Source: Acidimicrobiia bacterium
GTDB taxonomy: Bacteria > Actinomycetota > Acidimicrobiia > Spongiisociales > ZC4RG35
Length of the DNA: 64,000 nt
Reading direction: 5' to 3'
NCBI GenBank assembly: GCA_965215185.1
Contig: OZ244034.1
Span: 2,304,001 to 2,368,000, forward strand
Both the position numbers and the translations under genes were made by a program. Below, piece by piece: positions 31,512 to 45,206 of the stretch (its first letter is position 1; each line of letters begins with the position of its first letter). Below the pieces are notes generated by a model, which searched no databases, was not told where the DNA came from, and was given only the letters and a program-made list of their open reading frames with translations.

Positions 31512-34499
31512 TTACTGGCATTGTGCCGGGGTACTGTCCTTTTGGGACACCGCGAGGACGTATGTGCCCTTGAAGCCGCCTTGGGAGTTGATCTTGACGT
31601 AGTGCGAACCGGTGCCTGCTGCGGTGAACTCCAACCTCGCGTCATTTCCCGGGCCGCTGTCTAAATCGTGGGAATCGTCTATCCGGCCTCCGCCCTTGGA
31701 ATGGAGACGGCCGGCGGTTTCGTAGGCGCCGTGCAGCGCCGTGTCATCAGGGTCGACGTAGATGCCGAGCAGCTCCGGATCCGGCAACGTTGCAGTGCCG
31801 GAGCTGAGCCCGCGTACTTCGAGCACATACGTCTCCCCGGCGATGAGTTCGACGCGTATCCAGTCGATGTCCCACGACGGGTCGATTCTCGCTCGCGTCG
31901 GGTCGCCGAAGCAACTGCCGACTTCCACCGACGCGGAGGTGCTGAAATCGGGAACCGGGTCGTTTGCCTGCGGTGACGTGCTTGCCATCAAGAACATCGA
32001 CTTCAACGAATGGGTGCCGGGTGACTGAACGCGTACGTAGTAGATGCCTGAGGGGACCACGGCATTCACGTATTCCTCGACGTTCGACTCATTTGTGCTC
32101 GAGGCGAGAACCGCCAGCGTCGAGTCGGACTGTGGCTGCTCGAGGAACACATCTGCATCACGGGAGATGTCCAACAAGACGGCCGCGACGAATCGTTCTC
32201 GTGTCAACGTAAACTTGAAATAGTTCGATCCAGAACTCAGCCAGTCATGCCACACGAGGCTCAGAGCGCCCTGCGTGGTCATATCTCCAAGGTCAAGCGC
32301 GCCGACGGGTCCCGCAGCATCGTCATCGGCCACCGTTGCCGACACTTGCGCCGACAGCCCAGCATAGTTCGCGTCAGCCGATGTCGCGGTCGCTGTCACC
32401 GACACCGTCTCGAACGCATCGTCGTTGTCGTCGACACCGGCAACCGTGACGGTCTGGGCCGTGCCCCATGTCGCCGAGGTGAAGACCAGCAGCGCCCCGT
32501 CGCTCACCCTCAACGCCCCGCTGTCACCCGAGGACACCACAACGACGACATCCGCCGACGGGGCAGTGGAGAGTCTCACCGAGAACTCCCCGGTGCCCAT
32601 CTCGCCCACGCGCATCTGCGTGGCGTCCACCACCAACCCGGAATGATCGTCGTCTTCGACATCGACCTCCAACTCCACGCGTGTCTCGTCGTAGGCAGCA
32701 TCGGTGGACGAAGCCACCGCTGTGACGGTCACGTTGTCATCGTCAGCATCGTCGTCGTCGACACCGGCAACCGTGACGGTCTGGGCCGTGCCCCATGTCG
32801 CCGAGGTGAAGACCAGCAGCGCCCCGTCGCTCACCCTCAACGCCCCGCTGTCACCCGAGGACACCACAACGACGACATCCGCCGACGGGGCAGTGGAGAG
32901 TCTCACCGAGAACTCCCCGGTGCCCATCTCGCCCACGCGCATCTGCGTGGCGTCCACCACCAACCCGGAATGATCGTCGTCTTCGACATCGACCTCCAAC
33001 TCCACGCGTGTCTCGTCGTAGGCAGCATCGGTGGACGAAGCCACCGCTGTGACGGTCACGTTGTCATCGTCAGCATCGTCGTCGTCGACACCGGCAACCG
33101 TGACGGTCTGGGCCGTGCCCCATGTCGCCGAGGTGAAGACCAGCAGCGCCCCGTCGCTCACCCTCAACGCCCCGCTGTCACCCGAGGACACCACAACGAC
33201 GACATCCGCCGACGGGGCAGTGGAGAGTCTCACCGAGAACTCCCCGGTGCCCATCTCGCCCACGCGCATCTGCGTGGCGTCCACCACCAACCCGGAATGA
33301 TCGTCGTCTTCGACATCGACCTCCAACTCCACGCGTGTCTCGTCGTAGGCAGCATCGGTGGACGAAGCCACCGCTGTGACGGTCACGTTGTCATCGTCAG
33401 CATCGTCGTCGTCGACACCGGCAACCGTGACGGTCTGGGCCGTGCCCCATGTCGCCGAGGTGAAGACCAGCAGCGCCCCGTCGCTCACCCTCAACGCCCC
33501 GCTGTCACCCGAGGACACCACAACGACGACATCCGCCGACGGGGCAGTGGAGAGTCTCACCGAGAACTCCCCGGTGCCTGCCTCGCCCACGTTCAGGCCG
33601 GTAGGCACGGCAAGGAGTCCCGCAGCTTCCCTGCTGCCTCCGCCGCCTCCTCCGCCTCCTCCTCCGCCGCTTCCGCTTCCGCCGCTTCCGCCGCTTCCGC
33701 CTCCTCCGCCGCTTCCGCTTCCGCCGCTTCCGCCGCTTCCGCCTCCTCCGCTTCCGCCGCTTCCGCTTCCGCCTCCTCCGCCTCCGATGGAGTCGTCGCT
33801 GCCGGGGCTTTCTTCCGAGGGTTCCAATTCCAAGGCGCGTGCGAGGAACGTGGCCATCTCTGCTCTGGTAACAGCTTGGTCCGGGCAGAACATGGTGTCT
33901 TCGCATCCTTTGGTGATACCCGAAGCGGCGAGCTTGGCGACACTTGCCGCGTACCAAGCGTCGGAAGGCACGTCGCTGAAACCAGGGTCGGGTCCTTCAT
34001 CCAGACCGAAAGCCCGCGACAGGAAGGCAGCCATCTCGGCGCGGGTCGTAGTCCGATCGGGGCAGAAGACACTGCCGTCCCCGCATCCCTTGGTGACGCC
34101 AAGTACTGCCAGGCGCTCAACGAAAGCTACGTGAGGATGCGCCGCGTCCACGTCCCCAAAGCGCCTTGACGCAGCCGGCCAGGGGTCCGCTCCGTCCAGG
34201 ACGCGAACAGTCCACACCGCCACCGTCGCGCGATCTATGTCATCCCCGGGGCAGAACCCCTCATCGCACTCAGTGCCCACAAACACCCCGGCGGCGGCAA
34301 GAGTGCTGACCGGCTCCGCGTAGTAGGTGTCCGGGGGAACATCCGAATACGGCGCACCGTCCTGCGCCACGGCCACCGACGTTGCTGCCCCCAGTACCGC
34401 AGCCACCATGGCCACAACAGCCAACCCCCAAACCACCCCAACACGAACGCCACTCAACCACAACCGCACTAAAACGAACCCCCACCGAGGCCGACACAA
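31512..34499 (-). CDS. SLH-domain surface protein with Gly/Ser linker, four Ig/Calx-beta-like repeats and C-terminal PPC-like domains (start uncertain)
   Basis: Signal peptide, YSDVP/FSDVP..TRAEMA SLH repeats, VRLSTAPSADV..FTSATWGTAQTVTVAGVDD repeats, DIDWIRVELIAGETY. Confidence 0.85.
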   Translation of the reverse strand: MCRPRWGFVLVRLWLSGVRVGVVWGLAVVAMVAAVLGAATSVAVAQDGAPYSDVPPDTYYAEPVSTLAAAGVFVGTECDEGFCPGDDIDRATVAVWTVRVLDGADPWPAASRRFGDVDAAHPHVAFVERLAVLGVTKGCGDGSVFCPDRTTTRAEMAAFLSRAFGLDEGPDPGFSDVPSDAWYAASVAKLAASGITKGCEDTMFCPDQAVTRAEMATFLARALELEPSEESPGSDDSIGGGGGGSGSGGSGGGGSGGSGGSGSGGGGGSGGSGGSGSGGGGGGGGGGGSREAAGLLAVPTGLNVGEAGTGEFSVRLSTAPSADVVVVVSSGDSGALRVSDGALLVFTSATWGTAQTVTVAGVDDDDADDDNVTVTAVASSTDAAYDETRVELEVDVEDDDHSGLVVDATQMRVGEMGTGEFSVRLSTAPSADVVVVVSSGDSGALRVSDGALLVFTSATWGTAQTVTVAGVDDDDADDDNVTVTAVASSTDAAYDETRVELEVDVEDDDHSGLVVDATQMRVGEMGTGEFSVRLSTAPSADVVVVVSSGDSGALRVSDGALLVFTSATWGTAQTVTVAGVDDDDADDDNVTVTAVASSTDAAYDETRVELEVDVEDDDHSGLVVDATQMRVGEMGTGEFSVRLSTAPSADVVVVVSSGDSGALRVSDGALLVFTSATWGTAQTVTVAGVDDNDDAFETVSVTATATSADANYAGLSAQVSATVADDDAAGPVGALDLGDMTTQGALSLVWHDWLSSGSNYFKFTLTRERFVAAVLLDISRDADVFLEQPQSDSTLAVLASSTNESNVEEYVNAVVPSGIYYVRVQSPGTHSLKSMFLMASTSPQANDPVPDFSTSASVEVGSCFGDPTRARIDPSWDIDWIRVELIAGETYVLEVRGLSSGTATLPDPELLGIYVDPDDTALHGAYETAGRLHSKGGGRIDDSHDLDSGPGNDARLEFTAAGTGSHYVKINSQGGFKGTYVLAVSQKDSTPAQCQ
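32420..33577. repeat. Tandem 327-bp intragenic repeats (about 3.5 units, essentially identical)
   Basis: Identical ORFs recur at 32704, 33031 and 33358. Confidence 0.95.
33637..33786. repeat. Low-complexity CCG/CCT/CTT repeat encoding a Gly-Ser linker
   Basis: Direct inspection. Confidence 0.9.
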
Positions 34500-34656
34500 T
34501 TACTACAGATACAACTCATTTACAGAGCAGAAGTTAGCACTTTATACTCGGCGCTCTCATTTTTACCTCACAATCGCCTTATAAATATAACACAGCGGGG
34601 CAGCGTCCCATTGACGTGGTGGGAATGATCCTTACCGCAGGATTGGATGGTATCTC

Positions 34657-34980
34657 GTGAGGACCGTCATGCGTCGGCTGGCAAGACTGGTGTGCTGGGT
34701 TCTGCTGTGTTTCGTGTTAGCAGAAGGCGGTGCTGCGGCGGGGACTGCTGTTGGTGCAAGAGTGGCTTTATTCGCGGTTCCTTCAATGAACGTATGCGAT
34801 CGCACACCAGCAGTTCGCGACACGATCGTCGCCGCGGTCGCCGGAATCGACGATTGCCAGGATGTGACCGAGGCGCACCTCTCCGGAATCGGAAGGTCTC
34901 TCATCCTGAGACGCATGGGCATCACGGCTCTTAGGGTTGGAGACTTCGACGGTCTGACCTCTCTGAGGAGATTGACGTTG
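34657..34980 (+). pseudogene. Secreted leucine-rich-repeat protein, N-terminal fragment
   Basis: Signal peptide; VCDRTPAVRDTIV..CQDVTEAHL cap; ITALRVGDFDGLTSLRRLTL. Confidence 0.7.
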
Positions 34981-35172
34981 CCCGACCGCTATCGGCCCGT
35001 TCTATTCGCCATGCCTGGCTGACAGACATTATTCATCAGATCCACCAGCGGTCACGGGGCACGTATGGGGCGCTGCGGGTGCATGCCGAACTGCGGTTGG
35101 GTCATGGAATCTCGTAGGACACAACGCGGTGGCGATGCTGATGCCCAGGAGCCGGCCTGGCCGGTCTCAGTA
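34981..35172 (+). mobile_element. IS3 orfB fragment
   Basis: Nucleotide similarity to 29340-29532. Confidence 0.8.
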
Positions 35173-35174
35173 GG

Positions 35175-35461
35175 TGACCGACGGCCCATTGATGATCACC
35201 CCGAAGACGACAGCACCTTCGTAGCTTCTTACATGATCTCCGATCCGGAAGGAACCACCACCGCCACCATGTTGACCGGCACCGACCGAGACGACCTGCA
35301 AATCACCAACACTGGACAGCTCAGTTTCCAGGAAATCCCCGACTATGAAAACCCCACCGATTCCAACCGCGACAACACCTACCAGGTAACAATCGAAACC
35401 ACCGCCGGCAGCCACACCACCCGCCACAACCTCACCGTGAAAGTCACCAACCAAGACGAAC
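35175..35461 (+). pseudogene. Cadherin-like repeat fragment
   Basis: SDPEG..GQLSF..PDYENPTDSNRDNTYQVTI..VKVTNQDEP. Confidence 0.7.
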
Positions 35462-35696
35462 CTGAGGTTCCCCCGGTTTGGCGGACTGTTTTGGTTGGTG
35501 TTCATGCCACCAGTTGTTGTTGGTGGCGGTAGTTTACGGGGCTTTGTTGGTTGTTGTAGGAGTGTCTCCTTTCGGGGTTGTACCAGCCTTCGATGTACTC
35601 GAAGATTGCCAGGCCCTGCTGGTGGCGGGTCTCCCATTTCTGGCGGTCCAGCAGTTCTGTTTGGAGGGTGGCGAAGAACGATTCCACGACGGCGTT
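35462..35696 (-). mobile_element. IS3 3' fragment with terminal IR
   Basis: NAVVESFFATLQTELL..IFEYIEGWYNPERRHS; end TGAGGTTCCCCCGGTTTGGCGGA. Confidence 0.8.
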
Positions 35697-36355
35697 GACG
35701 CCCCTATAGTCAAATTTTGGGTTTAGGGGGTGGTGTGTTGTCGGGTTTTGTGGTCGGTCATGACGCGTTGGTAGACCTCGCGGGCGAGGAAGCGTTTCAG
35801 GCAGCGGATGATGTCCTTTTTTGAGAGGCCCTGGGCGGTGCGACGAGCGACGTAGTCGATGGTGGGCTAGTGGAATCGCATTCGTACTATCGCTACTCGG
35901 TACAGCGCCGCGTTGGCTTGACGGTGCCCGCCTCTGTATAGACGATGCCTGTTGGTCTGTGCGGAGGAAGCCGGAATCGGACACGTGCCACAGAGTTTGG
36001 CGAATGCGGCCTCGGAACGGATCCGTTCGGGGTTGTCACCGAACACGATGAGAAGCTCCGCCGCGGAATCGGCTCCGATGCCAAAGCCGTCTCGCAGTGT
36101 TGGGGAGGCTTGGGCGGTGAGGTCGTCGAGCACGGTGTCGTGGGAGCGGATCTCGGTGTCGAGGTGGAGCCAGCGGCGTGCTAGTGCTCTTGAGTGAGTA
36201 CTTGGCGGAGGCTGTGGGGGTGTTGATCACCGAGACCCGAAAGCGTGCGCAACGGTTGATGAGCGCTTTGTTAGAAAGCCCATCGAGGGATTCGCGCAGC
36301 TCGGCCGGGGTGTTGACGATGATTGCCTTGAGGGTGATGATCGCCGAGGTTCGGC
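35697..36355 (-). mobile_element. IS110 element F (subfamily 2), C-terminal half with stops plus right end
   Basis: GIGADSAA..GDNPERIRSEAAFA..PASS..RHRL..RQANAAL; right end TTTGACTATAGGGGCGTC. Confidence 0.85.
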
Positions 36356-36790
36356 GAGCCTGTATACATGTCTGTGTGAGGTGGGTTCTTTATTGCTGTG
36401 GCTGGTGTGAGAGCCGGTCCGAGAGGAGAGTGTTTTGATGCCTATTGAACATGATGTGACGGAGGCGGCTGTGGTGGCTGCTGGTGTGGTGTCTGATGAG
36501 GTGGTGGAGGCGGTGGTTTCGGACGCTGCTGCTGGTGGTGTGGACCTTCTGGGTCCTGATGGGGTGTTGGCTGAGTTGACGAAGCGGATTCTGGAACGTG
36601 CTTTGGCTGAGGAGATGACCGATCATCTGGGCTATGAGTCCGGTGATCCGATGGGTCATGGTACGGGTAAGAACCGTAACGGGTCCTCTCCCAAACAGGT
36701 GCTGACTAAAGATCGGCGCGGTGGATTTGGACATTCCACGGGACCGTAACGCTACGTTCGAACCGAGGATCGTTCCCAAGGGCGCCCGGC
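36356..36790 (+). mobile_element. IS256-family left end and transposase N-terminal fragment
   Basis: End GAGCCTGTATACATGTCTGTGTGA; LLGPDGVLAELTKRILERALAEEMTDHLGY..RNG; PRDRNATFEP. Confidence 0.85.
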
Positions 36791-37230
36791 GCCGTAGCTG
36801 CCGGTGCCTTCCACCCCAACCCGCACCACACGACCCTGGGATCTCAACCAGCCGCCCAGTTCCTCAAAGCCGGTTGCATCGGCCGGGAACGGAGCGGTTC
36901 CCAGGACTCGACCGGCGGTGTCCACTACCGCCGCGACATGACAATCGCGATGGGTGTCCACCCCGCCAAACACCTCAACCAGGCTCTCTTTTTGTGACAT
37001 GAATGTCTTCTTCTTCCTTGGATAGACTCGCGGGTATCACCGGACCGGAAGCGGTGGACAGAACACTCATGATGGTGTGGAGAAGCAAGGCTCCTATAAG
37101 GTCACATCCGCTCCCGGGTCGGGGAGTGTCCCCAGGCCGAAAGCAGGCCGACAGATCATGATAAGGCACAAACGGCCAGTTTGTCAAGGGGTCAGACCCG
37201 CCCCGACCAGGGACCCCACCATTATCGAGT
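36786..37230 (-). mobile_element. IS110 element D (subfamily 2): left end plus recombinase N-terminal fragment (start 37000)
   Basis: GGVDTHRD, VEGTGSYGAG. Confidence 0.85.
37045..37215 (-). ncRNA. Putative bridge RNA of IS110 D (bounds approximate)
   Basis: Non-coding left end with scaffold shared with 41154-41290; guide-like segments match flank and element ends. Confidence 0.65.
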
Positions 37231-37587
37231 GTTTTGCAAATCGCTTTTCGGGGGTGGGGGTTGTTTGAGCTTTTTGGTGGGGTGGTTTGGGGTTGGGGCG
37301 AGTTCTGGGGGTTTAGTGGGGGGTTTTCCAGTAGCCGGTAGAGGTGGCGGGCGATGTACCGTTTGAGGCAGCGTCGTGCTTCGCGGGTGGTTTTTCCTTG
37401 GCTGATGCGTTTGGCTATGTAGGCCTGGGTTTTGGGACAGTGGCGGGTGCGGGTGATGGCCATGTTGTGGAGCGCGCGGTTGAGTTGGCGGTCACCGCGT
37501 CGGTTGAGTCGGTGGCGGGTGCGTTGCCCTGAGGAGGCTTGGAGGGGTGCTACGCCGGCTAGCCGAGCGAAGGCGGCTTCGTTACGG

Positions 37588-37766
37588 CAGCGGCAGCGTC
37601 CGAAACCACCGCCTCCACCACCTCATCAGACACCACACCAGCAGCCACCACAGCCGCCTCCGTCACATCATGTTCAACAGGCATCACAACACTCTCCTTT
37701 CGGGCCGGCTCTCACACCAGCCACAGCAATAGAGAACCCACCTCACACAGACATGTATACAGGCTC
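37588..37766 (-). mobile_element. Second IS256 left end, inverted relative to 36356-36533
   Basis: About 180-bp near-identical inverted copy. Confidence 0.9.
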
Positions 37767-38249
37767 GGTTTGAGCGCCTCGGCGGACGGTTTCCAGTACC
37801 CGCAGGGCTTCTCGGTCTCCCCGAGCGCGGGGAGCCGAAAGCCGGGAGCGTCCCAGCGCCTGGCGGGCGGCTCGTCGAGCGTCCAACGCGTCGGTTTTGG
37901 CGCCGTCGCGGGTCGGGTGGGGATGGCCGAACTCTATTACCCATTCACCAGCCTCAGAAAGGTAGTCGGTGACTCCTGCTCCGTAGCTACCGGTTCCTTC
38001 CACCACCCACGCTCGTTCCGCGGATGTGTGCTGGTTTGTCCACTCCAACAGTTGAGCATATCCCATGCTGGTTGTCCCAAAGCGCGCAGATGTCAACTCT
38101 CCGGTGGTGGCAGTGTCCACTACCGAAGCGGTGATCCAGTCACGGTCAGGGCCTATTCCTATCGTATGTTTTACCATCTCGGCTAGCATCGTATTTGTTC
38201 CTCTTTTCTGGTGTTACCGGTTAGAGCTGGCGTACCCCCGAGGAGCGGC

Positions 38250-38450
38250 AACCGTTACGGCAGACCTGTGATGGGTCACACCCATTTGGGTGGACAGGCT
38301 TCTGATCAGGCCAGCAACGAAGCACCCAGGCGGGCGCAGCGAAGGGTGTCGGACACATCGATTTGAAGACACGGACCGGTCGGTAAAGACAGAAACGGTC
38401 AGGGTTTTGGAGGGTCACGACACCACCGCTGCGCCTAGCCTGGCAGACTC
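38250..38450 (-). ncRNA. Putative bridge RNA of IS110 A (bounds approximate)
   Basis: Scaffold homologous to 39780-39960, with differences concentrated in two short guide segments. Confidence 0.7.
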
Positions 38451-38462
38451 TGAGAGCACCCC

Positions 38463-39698
38463 CTACATACTCACAGGGTTTGGTGCGGTGAGCCATTGGT
38501 GGTATCGGGTGGCGAGTTGGTGGTTGTGGTAGAGGCCTCGTTCGAGTTGTGAGAGGCGGTTTGGGTGGGCGTGGACGGCTGTGGCGGCCTGAGCGAGAGT
38601 GGTCCGGGTTTTTTGGCGTAAACAGCGTAGATCGGCGCCGTTGGGTGTTGAGGGTGGGTCGGTCAACAGTCGGTAGACCTGGCGGGCGATGTGGCGTTTC
38701 AGACAGCGGATGATCTCTCGGCGGGTTTTGCCTTCCGCCCGGCGTTTTTCGACGTATTCGATGGTGGTCTGGTCGCAGCGCATCCGAGTGGTGGCGATCC
38801 GCCACAAAGCGTTGTTGGCTTGGCGGTCGCCACCGCGGTTGAGGCGATGGCGCACAGGTCCTGAGGATGCCTGGACGGGACTGGCGCCGCACAACGCCGC
38901 GAAGGAAGCTTCCGATCTCATGCGTTCGGGGTTGTCACCAGCTGCGACCAATAAGGCGGCGGCGGTGTCCGGGCCGATCCCTGTGGTGGCCAACAGCGCC
39001 GGGTTGGCCCGGGCGCAGAGATCTTTGATCCGGGTGTCGAGTTCTCCGATCTCTGCGGTGAGGGTCTGGTATCTGCGGGCCAAGAGACGGAGGACATGTT
39101 TGGCGTAGGTGATGGTGGTGTCACCATCACCCGGACGAAAACCGGCACAGACCTTCCCGCGGGCTTTGGGGGAGAGCCCCCGAAGTTGGTGTTTGACCTG
39201 GTCGGGAGCAGTGACCACCAGGGCGTGCAGCTGGTTGATGGCCTGGGTACGGGCCTTGATCGCCGAACGGTGGGCCACTGTCAGCATCCGTATTGCTTCT
39301 ACTGGTCCGTTCCCGCTTTTGGGCAACCCGGTGGCCTGCCCGTTCAAAGCAGCCCGCGCCGCTGCCCGGGCGTCTGTGACATCGGTCTTGCCGAAGCGGC
39401 GGCGTAACTGGCGGTTGGGCCGGTTCACTTCCACCACCTCAACACCAATGCTCATAAGGTGGCGGGTCAGGCCGGCGCCGTAGCTGCCGGTGCCCTCCAC
39501 CCCGACCCGCACAACACGACCCAGGGACCCCAACCAGTTGTTCAACCGTTCATAACCGGCGACATCGGCCCGAAACGGCGCCGAGCCAAGGACCCGACCG
39601 GTGGCATCCACCACCGCCGCGACATGGGTATCACGGTGGGTGTCGACCCCACCAAACACAATCCGATCATCCTCTGACATATGCATCTTCTCCTTCAA
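38463..39698 (-). CDS. IS110 recombinase of element C (subfamily 2) with C-terminal XRE-like HTH
   Basis: DEDD: GVDTH, VEGTGSYG, KTDVTDA; Tnp ASSG; tail LRCLRQK..TLAQAA..LSQLERG. Confidence 0.92.
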   Translation of the reverse strand: MKEKMHMSEDDRIVFGGVDTHRDTHVAAVVDATGRVLGSAPFRADVAGYERLNNWLGSLGRVVRVGVEGTGSYGAGLTRHLMSIGVEVVEVNRPNRQLRRRFGKTDVTDARAAARAALNGQATGLPKSGNGPVEAIRMLTVAHRSAIKARTQAINQLHALVVTAPDQVKHQLRGLSPKARGKVCAGFRPGDGDTTITYAKHVLRLLARRYQTLTAEIGELDTRIKDLCARANPALLATTGIGPDTAAALLVAAGDNPERMRSEASFAALCGASPVQASSGPVRHRLNRGGDRQANNALWRIATTRMRCDQTTIEYVEKRRAEGKTRREIIRCLKRHIARQVYRLLTDPPSTPNGADLRCLRQKTRTTLAQAATAVHAHPNRLSQLERGLYHNHQLATRYHQWLTAPNPVSM

Positions 39699-39753
39699 AG
39701 GTAGAATTCGTTTCTGTTCTCTCTGACCCGAAAAAACGGTGGACAGACCACTC

Positions 39754-41153
39754 TGTGAGTATTGGGGGGGCCTTGTAGAGGCTGCCAGGATTGGCGTCAG
39801 CGGTGGTGTCGTGACCCGAGACCACTCTGACCTTTGTGTCTTTGCCGTGATATGTCCGACACCGCCGCGACGCCCCTGGGCGTTCCGTTGCTGGCCTGAT
39901 CAGAAGCTTGTCCACCCATGGGGTGTGACTCATCACAGTCCTGCCGTCACGGTTTGCGCCTTGTGAGGCACTAGCCCAGTTCGCACAAGAAAGAGAAGGT
40001 TTCTTATGTTGGCCACAATGGTAGAGCATGTGATCGGGATCGATCCTGATCGTGACCGGGTCACCGCCGCGGTAGTAGACACTTCCACCACCGGAGAACA
40101 AGCGACTGCGGTGTTCGGAACCACCCGGCTGGGATATGACCGGTTGTTGAAATGGGCAGACCAGCACACTCAGACGGCTGAGCGGGTGTGGTCGGTGGAA
40201 GGCTCGGGCAGTTACGGAGCAGGCGTGACCACCTATCTCGCTGCCCGAGGTGAACTAGTGGTGGAGTTCAACGATCCCACCCCTACCCGCGACGGCGCCA
40301 AAACCGACGCACTGGACGCTCGGCGGGCCGCTCGCCAGGTGCTGGGCCGTCCTTGGCCATCTGTCCCGCGGGCTAGGGGAGACCGCGAAGCCTTGCGAGT
40401 GTTGGAGACCACCCGCCAGGGCGCCCAAGGGGCCAGAGTATCGGCCATCAACCAGCTAAAAGCCCTGGTAGTGACCGCGCCAGTCGATCTTCGGGACCAA
40501 CTCCGAGGTCTGAGCACAACTGCTCTGGTGGCCAAGTGCGCGGCGTTTCGAATCCGACCCGCCTCCGTCAACGAACTGACCGCCACCAAACAAGCCCTAC
40601 GTTCTACAGCCAGACGCATCCGCAACCTCAACAATGAAATAGCAGAGCTGAAAACGCCCATCGCCGAAATGGTCACAGCCGCAGCTCCGCAACTGCTCGA
40701 CCAATTCGGGATTGGTCCGGTCACCGCCGCCCAAGTGTTCATCGCCTGGTCCCACCCAGGCCGATGCCGCAACGAGGCCGCGTTCGCTCGCCTGGCCGGC
40801 GTAGCACCCCTCCAAGCCTCCTCTGGACAACAAACCCGCCACCGGCTAAGCCGCTACGGCGACCGCCAACTCAACCGCGCCCTCCACACCATCGCTATCA
40901 CCCGCGCTCGGGACTGCCCCAAAACCCGGGCCTACATCGCCAAACGCATCAGCCAAGGAAAAACCACCCGAGAAGCCCGCCGCTGCCTCAAACGGTACAT
41001 CGCCCGCCACCTCTACCGACTCCTACAAAACCCGCCCCCAACCCCGGCCGAACCAGCCCCACCGTTCCACTCGGAAACGCCGCAACACCCCCACAAGCTC
41101 AAACATCCTCAAATCCCCGCCAAAAGCCTCGATTTGGAGAACATAGAAGCATC
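39754..41153 (+). mobile_element. IS110 element B (subfamily 1), apparently complete
   Basis: Left end TGTGAGTA shared with element A; right end CATAGAAGCATC; TC present at both junctions. Confidence 0.85.
39780..39960 (+). ncRNA. Putative bridge RNA of IS110 B (bounds approximate)
   Basis: Segments in LTG-RTG-LDG-RDG order match the left flank (AGACCACTC), right flank (TCAC), right end (AGAAGC) and left end (CTGTGA). Confidence 0.75.
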
Positions 41154-41292
41154 ACATGGCAAGAGCAAGGCTCCTATCAGGTCACAGCCGCCCTGTCGGG
41201 AGAGCACCGCCCCCAGGCCGGAAGCAGGCCGACAGATCACCACAAAGGCACAACAGCCAGGTCGGAGTCGAGTCAGACCCGCCCCGGCCTAG
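40006..41292 (+). CDS. IS110 recombinase of element B (ORF reads past the element right end)
   Basis: GIDPD, VEGSGSYG, AKTDALDA, ASSG, RQLNRALH. Confidence 0.92.
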   Translation: MLATMVEHVIGIDPDRDRVTAAVVDTSTTGEQATAVFGTTRLGYDRLLKWADQHTQTAERVWSVEGSGSYGAGVTTYLAARGELVVEFNDPTPTRDGAKTDALDARRAARQVLGRPWPSVPRARGDREALRVLETTRQGAQGARVSAINQLKALVVTAPVDLRDQLRGLSTTALVAKCAAFRIRPASVNELTATKQALRSTARRIRNLNNEIAELKTPIAEMVTAAAPQLLDQFGIGPVTAAQVFIAWSHPGRCRNEAAFARLAGVAPLQASSGQQTRHRLSRYGDRQLNRALHTIAITRARDCPKTRAYIAKRISQGKTTREARRCLKRYIARHLYRLLQNPPPTPAEPAPPFHSETPQHPHKLKHPQIPAKSLDLENIEASHGKSKAPIRSQPPCRESTAPRPEAGRQITTKAQQPGRSRVRPAPA

Positions 41293-41312
41293 GGGCACCT
41301 ATAAGTATGAGT
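41154..41312 (-). ncRNA. Left end / putative bridge RNA of IS110 C, separated from its ORF by element B
   Basis: Joining 39737-39753 to 41154 onward restores a sequence collinear with 37052-37215. Confidence 0.7.
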
Positions 41313-41845
41313 GGTTGGAGTCGACGTGGACGGGCGTAAACATGTGCTGGGGGTATGGCTGGGCGACGGCGGTGAAGGCGCCAAATACTGGTTGTCGGTA
41401 CTTACCGAGATACGCAACCGAGGCCTCGAAGACGCGCTGATCGTGTGCTGTGACGGCCTGAAAGGGCTCCCGGACGCGATCGAGGCGACATGGCCCCAGG
41501 CGCTGGTGCAGACCTGTGTGATCCACCTGCTGCGAGCCTCTATGCGGCTCTGCAGTTGGAAAGACCGAAAAACCATTGTGGCGGGCTTGCGACGCGTTTA
41601 CACCGCGGTAAACGCCGAAGCCGCTGTTGAGGCGTTGGACGAGCTCGAGGAACAATGGGGAAATCACTATCCCGGCGTTATACGAATATGGCGCCAGGCG
41701 TGGGAAGAGTTCACCCCGTTCCTGCGGTTCCCGCCAGAGCTTCGCAAGGTCGTGTACACAACCAACGTCGTCGAAAGCGTCCACTATCAACTACGGAAAG
41801 TCACCAAAACCAGGGGGCATTTCCCCACCGACCAATCCGCCCTCG
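41313..41845 (+). mobile_element. IS256 transposase internal fragment
   Basis: GRKHVLGVW, RNRG..CDGLKGL, QTCVIHLLR, YTTNVVES. Confidence 0.9.
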
Positions 41846-41953
41846 CACTTGGATCGCGCCTCGCCCAACAGCATCCAAATGCTGGGGCCGAGCGAGTTGA
41901 TATCGGTGGCCTTGAAAGTGATCCACGGGTGGGACTTCAGATAGGAGCGCACA
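41846..41953 (-). pseudogene. Possible Fic-family protein N-terminal fragment
   Basis: SHPWITF..IWMLLGEARSKCE recalled from Fic protein N-termini. Confidence 0.45.
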
Positions 41954-42069
41954 AGTGCCGCTCTACTATCGGTATATTGTTTTGACCATTCTGATGTCCA
42001 ACTTGTTGTCCAGTAAAGAGACAGTGCAGTCAAGAGGTTTGCGGGAGTTCCCCCGCGTTCTAGTCGGGG

Positions 42070-43614
42070 CTAAGCCTCCGTCTGGAACTTGGCTTTCTCT
42101 GCGTCTCGGAGCCATCTTTTCATTACTTTGCCGGAGTCGTTGCGGACTAGGGCATCTACTACTTCGAAGTGTTTGGGGACTTTGAATTTGCCGAGGTTGG
42201 CGCGGCAGTGGGCGGTTAGTTCTTCTTCGGTGACGGTCATGCCGGGGAGGGCCACCACGAAGGCTTTGGGTACTTCGTCCCAACGCTCATCGGGCACTCC
42301 CACCACTGCTGTCTCGCTAACTGCCGGGTGTCTGGCCAGCACCCGCTCAATTTCGGCGCTTGCCACGTTTTCTCCGCCGCTTTTGATCATGTCCTTCTTG
42401 CGGTCCACAAACCACATATAGCCCTCGGCGTCGATGCGGCAGATGTCGCCTGAGTGGAACCATCCGTCGCGGAAGGCGGCGGCGGTCTCGTCAGGATCGT
42501 TCCAGTAACCCGGCGACACTTTGGGTCCACGGGCGACTAACTCTCCGGGCTCCCCGGGCGGCACCGGTCGGCCTTCGTCGTCCACTATCCGAAGATCTAT
42601 GTTGGCAAAGGGCCTTCCCACAGATCCTATTTTCTCGGGAGGGGGGTTGGCCTCCAGGTAGGCGGCGCCGTTGGTGAGTTCGGTCATCCCATACGCCTCT
42701 GACAACCGCACGTGCGGCAGGGTCTCCTGGAAACGGCGATAGACCGGCGCCGGCAGCCCTCCGAAGATGATCCACTTCAGAGAAGACAGGTCGTACTGAT
42801 GGCGGTCTTCCATCCTCATGATGTCGTGGATGATCTGAGCGGCCAGCACCCCTCCCGCCACCTTCTCCTTCGCCACCAGCTTCACGATCTCCCGGCCCGC
42901 ATAGCTGTGGACGATCACCAGCGTCGCTCCTATGTAAAGAGCAGTGAGTCCTGGGACATCCAGTCCGCTGACGTGAAATAGCGGCGCCGAAAGCATGATC
43001 CGGTCACTAGGAACCAGTTCCATTTCCAGAATCTGACCCACCTGATTCCAGATCACGTTTCCGTGGGTGGTGATCACCCCTTTGGGATGGCTGGTGGTAC
43101 CCGACGTGTAAAGAATCCGGGCCAGATCATCCAGCCCCATCTGGGCGTCAGGCACCTCTGCCCCGGCGGCGGCAGCCATCAATTCCTCGTAAACGTGCCA
43201 GCCGGCTGGGCCTTGGCCGGCATGGACGATGACGTGCCGGATGTCTGGAGAAGAAGCGAGCGTCTCTTGGGCTTTGTCGTGGAACCGTTGATCGACCACC
43301 AGTCCCACCGCTCCGGAATGGTTGAGGATGTAGGTCAACTCCCGAGGGTGAAGGCGCCAGTTGAGGGGGATAAAGGCCGCTCCGATCCGGTTGATGGCCA
43401 GGATCTCGATCAGGTAGTGATAGGAGTTGTCGGCCAGGATGGCGATGATGTCTCCCCTCCCATACCCCAGGTCCAAGAGCGCCTGGGCCATTTCGCTGAC
43501 CGCCGCGTCCAGTTGCCGGTAGGTAAGCCGGACCTCTCCATCAACCACGGCCTCCTTGTCTCCGAAGCGGTGCTTGTTGCGTTCCAGCAGGCGGCTCAGA
43601 TTGGCGGTGGGCAT
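42070..43614 (-). CDS. Acyl-CoA synthetase
   Basis: YTSGTTSHPKG, EAYGMTE, HSGD, SGKVMK; paralog of 14040-15605. Confidence 0.95.
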   Translation of the reverse strand: MPTANLSRLLERNKHRFGDKEAVVDGEVRLTYRQLDAAVSEMAQALLDLGYGRGDIIAILADNSYHYLIEILAINRIGAAFIPLNWRLHPRELTYILNHSGAVGLVVDQRFHDKAQETLASSPDIRHVIVHAGQGPAGWHVYEELMAAAAGAEVPDAQMGLDDLARILYTSGTTSHPKGVITTHGNVIWNQVGQILEMELVPSDRIMLSAPLFHVSGLDVPGLTALYIGATLVIVHSYAGREIVKLVAKEKVAGGVLAAQIIHDIMRMEDRHQYDLSSLKWIIFGGLPAPVYRRFQETLPHVRLSEAYGMTELTNGAAYLEANPPPEKIGSVGRPFANIDLRIVDDEGRPVPPGEPGELVARGPKVSPGYWNDPDETAAAFRDGWFHSGDICRIDAEGYMWFVDRKKDMIKSGGENVASAEIERVLARHPAVSETAVVGVPDERWDEVPKAFVVALPGMTVTEEELTAHCRANLGKFKVPKHFEVVDALVRNDSGKVMKRWLRDAEKAKFQTEA

Positions 43615-43638
43615 GGCTGGTTTGTCCTCTGGTTGGGC

Positions 43639-44145
43639 CTAAGTGTCTTTGGCGTGCTTACTACGGTAGGCCAGAATCTCGGCCCGGGTGGGAAGAGCTA
43701 CGAATTCCAACAGATAACCGTCGGGATCCTTGGCAATAAAGGATCGGATCACCCCGTAGTTCTCGAGTTCCACAGCCAGGGGCTCGCAAAGAAACTCAGC
43801 ACCGGCCTCTTGCGCCCGACGGTACTGATCGTCAATCGTGTCGCCCTCTTTGATTTCAAACGACATGAGAAACCCGCCCAGGTCCTTCATCCCTCCCGGC
43901 CTGGTTCCCGGCGTGAGTCCATCATCCCATTCGATTAGTTCGATCTGGCCCAATTTCGACGGACCTTGCAGGAACACCGAGCGCCCGGTGGTGCCGGGGG
44001 GAAGCGCCAGGAACTTCTCCACGTCTTCTCCCTCCTGTTTCATCCTCAAAGTCGGCCGGTAGCCCAAGACCTGTTGATAGAACGCCACCGAGCGGTCCAA
44101 ATCGGTCACCGGCAAGGCGACATGGTGAATCTCGCTGACGCTCAT
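43639..44145 (-). CDS. VOC/glyoxalase family protein
   Basis: HHVALPVTDLDRSVAFY, DPDGYLLEF; paralog of 22125-22652. Confidence 0.88.
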   Translation of the reverse strand: MSVSEIHHVALPVTDLDRSVAFYQQVLGYRPTLRMKQEGEDVEKFLALPPGTTGRSVFLQGPSKLGQIELIEWDDGLTPGTRPGGMKDLGGFLMSFEIKEGDTIDDQYRRAQEAGAEFLCEPLAVELENYGVIRSFIAKDPDGYLLEFVALPTRAEILAYRSKHAKDT

Positions 44146-45206
44146 ACCAGAGTCAACTGATCAGACATCTGCAATTGGGGTATTACCTCCGAGGCGAAGG
44201 TTTCCATGGCCGTCAGGGCGGCAGATCGATCCAGAGACGGTATCCGAAACCAACCTATGTAATGAGTGACGCCCAACTCTTCGCCCAATAGGCTCAAGGT
44301 GTTGACCACTTGGTCGACCGAGCCGAAGTTTCCTCCGTGGGTGAGAGTCTGCTCCAAGGTGAGAAGCTCGATGTTCTCCCGGACCTTGGCGTAGTAGGCC
44401 GCTTCCGAGGCAAGCGCATCGTCGGATCCGGGGATCACTTTTCCGACTGATTGGTAGTAGCGAAGCGCGGCTTCGGCGGCCTCCCGCAGGCCAGCGGGAT
44501 CGGCGCCCGCCCACACCTGCTGCATGAACGGCAATTCGTAGTCGGCAGGGTTGAAGCCCGCCTCCACCAGAGAATCCCGATACACCTGGAAGTTGTCTTT
44601 CATCTTGCCCAGCGGAGTGAAGTTGGGAGAGGTGATGATGTTGGATCCGTCCAAACCCCTCTTTCTGAAAGAACTGGGGGATACTGCTCCGTGTACCAGT
44701 GGTGGGCCGCCCGCCTGATAGGGCCGGGGATAGGTGGTGAGGTTCTCGTATTGGAAATGTCGCCCCTGATAAGACCAGCCCTCCTCATTCCAGGCCAGAC
44801 TCACAATGTCCATCGCCTCGGCGTAGAGTTCCCGAGACTGGGCCGGATCGACTCCGAATCCTTTGAATTCCTTGGGCTGGTATCCCCGTCCCACTCCCAT
44901 CTGAAACCGTCCCTTGCTGATCACATCCAGCGCCGCTCCCTCTTCGGCCAAACGGATCGGGTCATGGAAGGGAACCACCATCACTGCAGTTCCGACCATG
45001 ATCTTTCGGGTACTGGCGGCGATCGCCGCTCCAAATTGCAGTGGGTTGCCCAATATGCCATAGCGGGAAAAGTGGTGCTCGGCTAGCCACACCGAATCAA
45101 AACCCAGTTGATCGGCGATCTGGATCTCCTCCAAGGTGTCATGGAGCACCTGGTGGTCTTCTTGTTCACCGGCCGATGGGAACAGATTCATGATTCCGAA
45201 TTTCAT
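44142..45206 (-). CDS. LLM flavin-dependent oxidoreductase
   Basis: GFDSVWLAEHHF, DPIRLAEE, GVGRGY. Confidence 0.92.
   Translation of the reverse strand: MKFGIMNLFPSAGEQEDHQVLHDTLEEIQIADQLGFDSVWLAEHHFSRYGILGNPLQFGAAIAASTRKIMVGTAVMVVPFHDPIRLAEEGAALDVISKGRFQMGVGRGYQPKEFKGFGVDPAQSRELYAEAMDIVSLAWNEEGWSYQGRHFQYENLTTYPRPYQAGGPPLVHGAVSPSSFRKRGLDGSNIITSPNFTPLGKMKDNFQVYRDSLVEAGFNPADYELPFMQQVWAGADPAGLREAAEAALRYYQSVGKVIPGSDDALASEAAYYAKVRENIELLTLEQTLTHGGNFGSVDQVVNTLSLLGEELGVTHYIGWFRIPSLDRSAALTAMETFASEVIPQLQMSDQLTLV

Follow-up and report, generated by a model that had tools for sequence, protein, structure and literature searches.

Nested IS110-family elements in an Acidimicrobiia genome carry predicted guides that match other insertion sequences

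Architecture of the nest

The DNA analysed here, called the window, is a stretch of 64,000 nucleotides from an Acidimicrobiia bacterium (GenBank assembly GCA_965215185.1, contig OZ244034.1, positions 2,304,001 to 2,368,000 of the forward strand). Between 35.7 and 41.3 kb it holds a nest of five IS110-family insertion sequences (IS), named A, B, C, D and the fragment F, inside copies of IS256 and IS3 elements. The guides predicted in the left ends of these elements match sequences of other IS, in the nest and elsewhere in the genome. The region from 35.46 to 41.84 kb was parsed by open reading frame (ORF) listing, Pfam and BLAST of the 3.12 Mb genome (60.7% G+C) against itself. A and B form subfamily 1 and C and D form subfamily 2, with ~47% protein identity between the two. 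The C recombinase matches PF01548 (DEDD_Tnp_IS110, 1.3e-24) and PF02371 (Transposase_20, 1.2e-18), the B recombinase matches the same two families (7.2e-13 and 1.1e-18), and A and D hold N-terminal fragments. As members of the IS110 group, the elements are ordinary.

The nest forms a head-to-tail chain on the minus strand, in the order IS256 right part, C, A, D, IS256 left part, F and an IS3 fragment, and C, A and D of this chain sit within one IS256-family copy. The left part of this copy (36355-36793, plus strand; bases 4-442 of the copy at genome position 2507226, BLAST 94.8%) encodes the N-terminus of Transposase_mut. The right part, the target of C, lies at 41314-41843 (plus strand; bases 704-1234; 94.5% to genome 2505993-2506523; Transposase_mut E = 1.5e-54). 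Both parts agree in strand and order, and bases 443-703 are lost. C is found in two pieces on the minus strand, the outer 160 nt of its left end with the target-binding loop (41154-41313, from alignment and fold) and its main part (38476-39753, both Pfam domains, right-end alignment). The main part has an open 411-codon transposase frame (38463-39698) and a truncated right end. Of the left end it retains the inner 55 nt, in which the right half of the right donor guide is found (39741-39753). Between the two pieces, in the donor-binding guide of C, lies B, a complete 1400-bp subfamily-1 element with both Pfam domains (39754-41153, plus strand). It is 98.65% identical to B2, the genome copy at 1,665,806-1,667,211.

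A (37232-38475, minus strand) has its left end starting at 38475. Its transposase is interrupted by an IS256-end fragment with residues ~142-255 deleted, and its right end is shortened by 13 nt through D. The fragment is an inverted stretch with bases 1-180 of a second IS256 copy (37588-37767, minus strand; 96.7% to window 36355-36534 in reverse). D (36794-37231, minus strand; N-terminus of DEDD_Tnp_IS110; 98.5% to genome 1097038-1097496) comprises the left end with the predicted bridge RNA and the first ~76 transposase codons, and is truncated at the IS256 joint. F is a third IS110-type fragment (35698-36354, minus strand; tblastn residues ~136-347; 87% to genome 897410-897694), which keeps the C-terminal part of the transposase and the right end ...TTTGACTATAGGGGC (35700-35714), its left end and guide having been removed by the IS256 cut. 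The right-hand flank of F is an IS3-family fragment with the C-terminus of OrfB (35463-35697, minus strand; rve_2/rve_3; 99.6% to genome 1611218-1611452). In the ORF at 35502-35984 (minus strand), the rve_2/rve_3 match begins at residues 97-101, which is the junction with F.

The two IS256 left ends (36355-36534 and 37588-37767) are inverted to each other, and deletions adjoin both. The losses near IS256 ends comprise residues ~142-255 of A, the remainder of D and 260 nt of IS256. This suggests that IS256-mediated deletions reshaped the nest after the IS110 insertions. A 155-codon frame at 35065-35532, between two IS3 fragments, has no Pfam match and, judged by eye, looks like a stranded piece of a repeat-rich surface protein.

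Four elements of the nest have readable guides. The guide of C (41260-41269) matches its flank (41313-41322) at 9 of 10 positions, where the sole mismatch would be a G:T wobble, and the guide of B (39818-39827) matches its flank (39744-39753) at 9/10. For A (38402-38411 vs 38476-38485) and D (37179-37188 vs 37231-37240) the match is 7/10. Based on 20,000 random genome positions per guide, with two registers allowed, the chance of an equal or better match is 0.009 for A, 0.005 for D and 0.0002 for C. The matches of A and D gain credibility from the covariation in 22 copies, by which the position of the guide is fixed. The D guide fits its own flank less well than that of a sister copy at 1,097,484 (98% identical), where the match is 9/10. 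The further candidate guides of D are the right target guide at ~37152-37164, the left donor guide at 37089-37098 and the right donor guide at 37056-37070 (minus strand, from alignment and fold); those of C are at ~41233-41246 (right target) and 41169-41178 (left donor), also on the minus strand.

A first-pass annotation had read six 10-mers as the guides and flanks of A, D and C, and all six are present at the coordinates and on the strand it gave. Its insertion points are borne out as well. A lies in the 3' end of C, more precisely in its non-coding sequence, where the insertion point is internal to the canonical subfamily-2 terminus by ~30 nt. D is located in the right end of A, 13 nt ahead of where ATAGAAGCATC would follow, and C inside an IS256-family transposase gene (Transposase_mut). 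B was placed in the bridge RNA of C, and indeed it splits the left end of C inside the donor-binding guide. The right end of F (35700) was placed next to an IS3 integrase, and the rve_2/rve_3 stretch begins at the junction. The broader claim, that every readable guide points at a transposon, is true of all four in the window and fails genome-wide, where 10 of the 28 junctions are in DNA that is either non-IS or unassigned.

Guide anatomy and targets across the genome

The positions of the guides were deduced from alignments of left ends. For subfamily 2 (12 left ends aligned), the 10 nt immediately 5' of a conserved CTGG covary with 9-10 nt outside the element, as in the guide/flank pairs TACCAAACC/TACCAAACC, TATGAAACC/TATGAAACC, TTGACAAAC/TTGACAAAC and AACTGAAATC/CACTGAAATC. 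For subfamily 1 (9 left ends), it is the stretch between GTGACCC and TGACC that covaries with the flank. Covariation was scored on 22 left ends in the genome, with two registers allowed in every comparison. Own guide and own flank agree at a mean of 8.4/10 in subfamily 2 (13 copies) vs 5.0 with other guide classes (n=142; 7% reach 7). The corresponding values in subfamily 1 (9 copies) are 8.0/10 vs 3.2 (n=50; 0/50 reach 7). The chance of the own-flank match per copy ranges from 0.03 down to <5e-5, and the guide-flank pairing on which the first-pass annotation depended is far above chance. Moreover, the loop that contains the left guide has on its 3' side a second variable stretch of 5-6 nt, whose sequence is the reverse complement of the start of the right half-site. 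This right guide matches at 5/5 in five of eight subfamily-2 classes (c979, c1005, c1098, C and c3012), and more weakly in D/c1097 (4/5), c2397 (3/5) and c1095 (2/5).

RNAalifold, with 11 subfamily-2 and 8 subfamily-1 left ends as input, predicts for both subfamilies that the two target guides share one internal loop, with a long closing stem and a small hairpin between them; two-sided changes are seen in 2 of 29 pairs in subfamily 2 and 16 of 59 in subfamily 1. The donor guides are located further 3' than the target-binding loop. The donor loop is poorly predicted by RNAalifold, and the donor guides were taken from alignments. In subfamily 2, GATAGGAGCC matches ATAGGAGC at the right end, and CACTCA at the left end has its complement in TGAGTG. 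The pairs in subfamily 1 are CAGAAGC with TAGAAGC and TCACA with TGTGA, and in a third IS110 family, t3, GATAGGAGC and ACGCAT match the own ends. The guides are upstream of the transposase gene in all three subfamilies. This predicted layout of the left end is the anatomy of an IS621-type bridge RNA.

The whole genome gave 29 candidate left junctions, of which 28 were kept; a left-end-like 10-mer at 2,481,831 (c2481stub) was dropped since it has no guide loop. Sixteen of the 28 lie within or adjoin IS110, IS256, IS3, ISL3 or IS481, and two more are at an integrase gene. Subfamily 1 points at subfamily 2 in A (variable part of the right end), in B and c1324 (right donor guide) and in c373 (transposase codons GACCGCCAAGCCAACAACG). 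Subfamily 2 points at subfamily 1 in D (right end) and in c979 and c374 (the equivalent transposase codons GACCGCCAACTCAACC). The reciprocal targeting proposed in the first-pass annotation thus exists in both directions, but it also occurs within the subfamilies, with c1097 in a subfamily-2 right end and c981 8 nt past a subfamily-1 right end, and into four other IS families. C is in the IS256 transposase gene, c1005 in IS3 orfA, c1098 and probably c1095 are 12 nt inside IS3 terminal repeats, c3012 and c3102 in the 3' end of the ISL3 transposase gene and c982stub in the 3' end of an IS481 gene. The IS3 element L113 has the motif targeted by c1095 and c1098 in each of its two 80-nt inverted repeats; the flank ORF of c1098 has no Pfam match, and its IS3 assignment is based on the shared terminal motif and on L113.

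When three possibly duplicated pairs are merged and t3 is excluded, 22 events remain. Thirteen of them, spanning at least 12 guide classes, are in IS. Given that repeats make up 12.2% of the genome, which is an upper bound for IS, the binomial P is 2e-7, and it is 0.004 if 30% of the genome were neutral. The enrichment of targets in IS, a corollary of the first-pass annotation, is therefore found.

Uninterrupted, empty copies of the targets exist in the genome for ISL3, IS3 orfA, IS256, IS481, the subfamily-1 transposase and t3. The empty sites read ACTGAAATC-C-GATGAGCC (ISL3), GGAAAC-C-GAACTGG (IS3 orfA), CACTCCAAC-G-ACCACG (IS256, listed as CTCCAAC-G-ACCACG) and CCACCAAC-C-AACAAC (IS481), and the subfamily-2 site for B reads CAGACCACTC-ACGG. 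In subfamily 1, TC occurs at each of the two joints, in B as in B2. In subfamily 2, one C only is common to target and element in five empty-site comparisons. A joint lacking B is also observed. The sequencing runs were all in the form of contigs, and contigs of two public runs connect 39751 to 41152, skipping 1400 bases with 2 shared letters; the sides of this joint are 28 and 24 nt, under the 30-nt caution level. An assembly artefact as the source of the nest was rejected, since the junctions follow the guide rules and the parts recur in independent runs. Contigs of the metatranscriptome run X19 cover 37064-37209 (left end of D) and 38871-39707 (transposase gene of C) at a depth of 2-6, a small share for which DNA carry-over is possible, and one X19 contig continues into c1097-type flank.

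A second recursive nest is found at genome 1,095,800-1,098,950 (L001, L005, L006). Here c1095 is at an IS3-end-like motif and has another IS3 end inside its left end, c1098 lies 12 nt inside that IS3 end, and c1097, the 98% sister of D, lies in the right end of c1098. The right end of c1097 is followed by the leftover 11 nt of the c1098 right end and then by the IS3 tip. At this right end of c1097 (~1,096,040-1,096,090), a 19-nt sequence, TGCGAATATCTAGGATGCT, stands between ...CAAAACCC and CTCGATTTGAC. This sequence is similar to the beginning of a subfamily-1 left end of the A type, at a site that the guide of A, TCCAAAACCC, would read with 8 contiguous matches, and it may be a remnant of a second A-type insertion. 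The t3 family has three copies (984,058-985,329; 1,647,191-1,648,462; 2,652,769-2,654,040), which are identical and hence recently active. The t3 guide AAACGACC matches its flanks, and the search of Rfam with the t3 target region gave no match. Two of the three copies are at the start of a phage-type integrase gene (Arm-DNA-bind_3, Phage_int_M, Phage_integrase), of which a third copy at 896,975 (L099) has the site empty. Furthermore, solo left ends with intact guide loops and no adjoining transposase gene are present at genome 228,671 (L017) and 255,767 (L010); their guides TCGATTTGAC and AATTGAAATC match the flanks at 9/10 and 7/10, respectively.

The relatives of the C transposase come almost all from Acidimicrobiia metagenome-assembled genomes. 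Among 18 of their loci with a recognisable guide loop, 15 have a guide-flank match of 7-10/10. The flanks are IS21 IstB, ISL3 or IS3 in eight of the 18; no assignment was obtained for the other ten, which may contain IS families outside the transposase set used. Pfam gave no family for 12 of the 17 longest flank ORFs in the related genomes, and blastx against a small in-house transposase set assigned three more loci (L026, L027, L041). At one locus, L028, the guide class reads subfamily-1 transposase codons, yet the locus is at an ISL3-type site, ...GCTGAAATC. A genome of the same order, G182, contains a subfamily-1-like left end 86% identical to B, with the guide GAGAACACTC, at the same site as B in a subfamily-2-like element on the opposite strand, and the host is 66% identical in protein to C. 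This unequal divergence of insert (86%) and host (66%) argues for separate insertions at a programmed site.

Order of insertion and alternative explanations

We consider it likely that the nest was built by sequential RNA-guided insertions into conserved, multicopy and harmless landing sites in other IS. Each element would carry a bridge RNA in its left non-coding end and would have been inserted into another IS by RNA-guided recombination, with the left target guide of ~9-10 nt reading the left half-site and the right target guide of ~5-6 nt reading the right half-site. From the nesting, the following order may be reconstructed. An IS256 copy would have entered F, which adjoins IS3, and C would have entered the transposase gene of this IS256. 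Then A would have entered the right end of C, D the right end of A, and B the left end of C, before A, D and F lost parts of their sequence to a second IS256 copy and to later deletions. The guides presumably diversified here and in relatives, so that most classes would now read conserved sequences of other mobile elements, including the IS110 right-end motif, donor-binding guide and transposase codons, IS3 terminal repeats and orfA, the ISL3, IS481 and IS256 transposase genes, and the start of an integrase gene. That the target IS are inactivated would be a side effect.

Such sites are most likely preferred because they occur in many copies, change slowly and can be entered without harm to the host. 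A strictly site-specific element multiplies only at a repeated site and survives best where it is harmless, and conserved parts of other transposons would serve both needs. The site of B, the subfamily-2 right donor guide, cannot drift freely since it must stay complementary to the left end of its own element. The first-pass annotation had left the cause between an arms race and a safe-harbour strategy; the latter fits these observations, and nothing was found that shows the former. The genome also indicates that other transposons can serve as the repeat family through which a strictly site-specific element spreads, which would explain IS nests as programmed rather than only tolerated. If the inactivation of host IS matters, it would amount to a novel type of interaction between mobile elements.

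Several observations weigh against sequential guided insertion. RNA guidance itself is deduced from the DNA sequence alone, and no curated Rfam model matched at 33000-45000 (E <= 1). The A and D matches are weak on their own at 7/10 each, the own-flank match of c1005 is 6/10, and the subfamily-2 core is no clean dinucleotide duplication. Among the relatives, the guide misfits the flank in L028, L036 and L040 (3, 4 and 5 of 10). These misfits suggest an exchange of left ends between copies by recombination, or a half-match insertion, which is reported in the available part of a 2026 preprint (10.64898/2026.08.31.748434). The ten junctions outside recognisable IS lie, among other places, in a PD40-repeat gene, in a UvrD-like gene and in a gene without a known family, at intergenic sites and behind integrase, 2-hydroxyacid dehydrogenase and DUF6527 genes; c909 and c228 were scored as not IS, as their flanks are like the IS110 right-end motif over ~10-21 nt only. 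The 12.2% baseline is a repeat fraction and not an IS annotation, the pairs c979/c374, c3012/c3102 and B/c1324 are possibly duplicated composites and not independent, and retention bias, the survival of harmless insertions in IS, also raises the IS share. Finally, a full-site scan with both left and right guide (at most one mismatch) returned 24 sites, of which only six are in repeats and seven are unoccupied near-cognate sites for the guide of C in unique DNA. Unoccupied sites of this kind mean that the pairing rules are incomplete or that such sites are selected against. With up to two mismatches the scan gives tens of sites per guide, which is the chance expectation and hence noise. The scan is too weak to decide and is not used as support.

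A wider reading would see IS-rich genomes as a parasite-on-parasite network, where IS110 guides are selected to track unchangeable transposon parts and the IS110 elements are hyperparasites that silence IS and co-diversifying competitors. The donor-binding guide of a rival would be trackable because it cannot mutate without loss of its own mobility. We find this rather doubtful. An arms race in the narrower sense, with guides selected for disabling the bridge RNA, right end or transposase of a competitor and targets and guides chasing each other, is unlikely. Functional and constrained parts are indeed struck, in both directions between the subfamilies: B splits the right donor guide of C, and c373 and c979 are in codons of a conserved motif of the Transposase_20 domain. 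The subfamily-1 guide variants GAGACC../GAGGCC.. also mirror the subfamily-2 stem variants GGTCTG/GGCCTG. However, constrained sites are the most conserved and most numerous ones too, and the same pattern is expected without conflict. Both copies with the GAGGCC guide are in non-IS DNA and not in subfamily 2, the IS256, IS3, ISL3 and IS481 elements that are likewise targeted are no RNA-guided competitors, and neither escape mutations nor a guide-target co-phylogeny are in evidence.

It seems quite improbable that a handful of old IS110-in-IS composites were duplicated or moved as units and then diverged. The flank identities of c979/c374 (88%), c3012/c3102 (93%) and B/c1324 (87%) would fit such a history, as would the recurrence of part of the IS256-IS3 junk of the window at genome 1610756-1611452. 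But even with these pairs collapsed, 13 of 22 events with at least 12 guide classes are still in IS, and the insert and host in G182 differ unequally from B and C. Least credible of all is that the insertions were never aimed at IS, the nest reflecting survival in harmless DNA and the guide matches chance, a view to which the frequency of IS nests in IS-rich genomes, the 7/10 matches of A and D and the unoccupied near-cognate sites in unique DNA lend something, but which is already contradicted by the own-flank scores (8.0-8.4/10 vs 3.2-5.0 for other classes), by right-guide matches independent of the left guide and by strikes at the same sites in different IS copies and other genomes.

Relation to known systems

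The comparisons below refer to the available parts of the cited reports. Bridge-RNA recombinases of the IS621/IS110 type have been described (Durrant et al. 2024, PMC11208160; Hiraizumi et al. 2024, PMC11208158). The present elements resemble IS621 in the DEDD plus Tnp20 recombinase, in the left non-coding end of ~200-260 nt upstream of the gene, in an internal loop whose left and right target guides match the flanks, in a second guide pair matching the own ends and in what may be a short shared core (TC in subfamily 1). They differ in that the subfamily-2 joint shares one C only, and in that they are known from their sequence. The natural targets recorded for IS621 and its relatives are repetitive elements such as repetitive extragenic palindromic (REP) sequences, whereas here they are mostly other IS, including the bridge RNA of relatives. 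In the IS1111 group, whose members have subterminal inverted repeats, the guide (seekRNA) lies downstream of the transposase gene (PMC11187229). The elements described here have it upstream of that gene, and coding regions and other IS110 elements are among their targets.

The nearest report concerns tandem or expanded IS110 loci (bioRxiv 10.64898/2026.08.14.744561). Shared features are the repeated entry into occupied IS110 loci, the head-to-tail modules and the lack of target immunity. The modules there are near-identical and joined by one-sided donor (half) matches, whereas diverged subfamilies (47%) are joined here via target-guide matches. The terms 'nested' and 'other IS' do not occur in the available text of that report. 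ISPpu9, ISPpu10 and ISPa11 target REP sequences (PMC12288879, 10.64898/2026.03.19.712850, PMC11187229) and are likewise strictly site-specific IS110/IS1111 elements multiplying via a multicopy repeat; in their case the repeat is a host extragenic element and not a transposon. Targeting of REP, attC and Tn21 ends follows the same logic of multicopy, harmless sites (PMC11208160, PMC11187229). In Tn21-end targeting, a DEDD-type site-specific IS lands in the end of another transposon, to which c1095 and c1098 in the IS3 repeats may be compared. The same targeting logic is reportedly found in work of Partridge and Hall from 2003.

Bridge-RNA recombinases are under development as genome editors, and natural guide aims beyond REP, attC and Tn21 ends are little described. 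The genome represents a natural reprogramming series with at least 15 guide classes on two related scaffolds, matched half-sites and empty sites. It yields candidate pairing rules for these scaffolds, namely a left stretch of ~9 nt, one shared C or TC, and a right stretch of 5-6 nt. No description of IS110 guides directed at other IS families or at one another was found in the literature searched, to which the supplementary target tables of PMC11208160 and PMC11187229 did not belong. Compared with these systems, the target habit looks new, with at least a dozen guide classes directed against five IS families, both ways between IS110 subfamilies and including a bridge-RNA guide.

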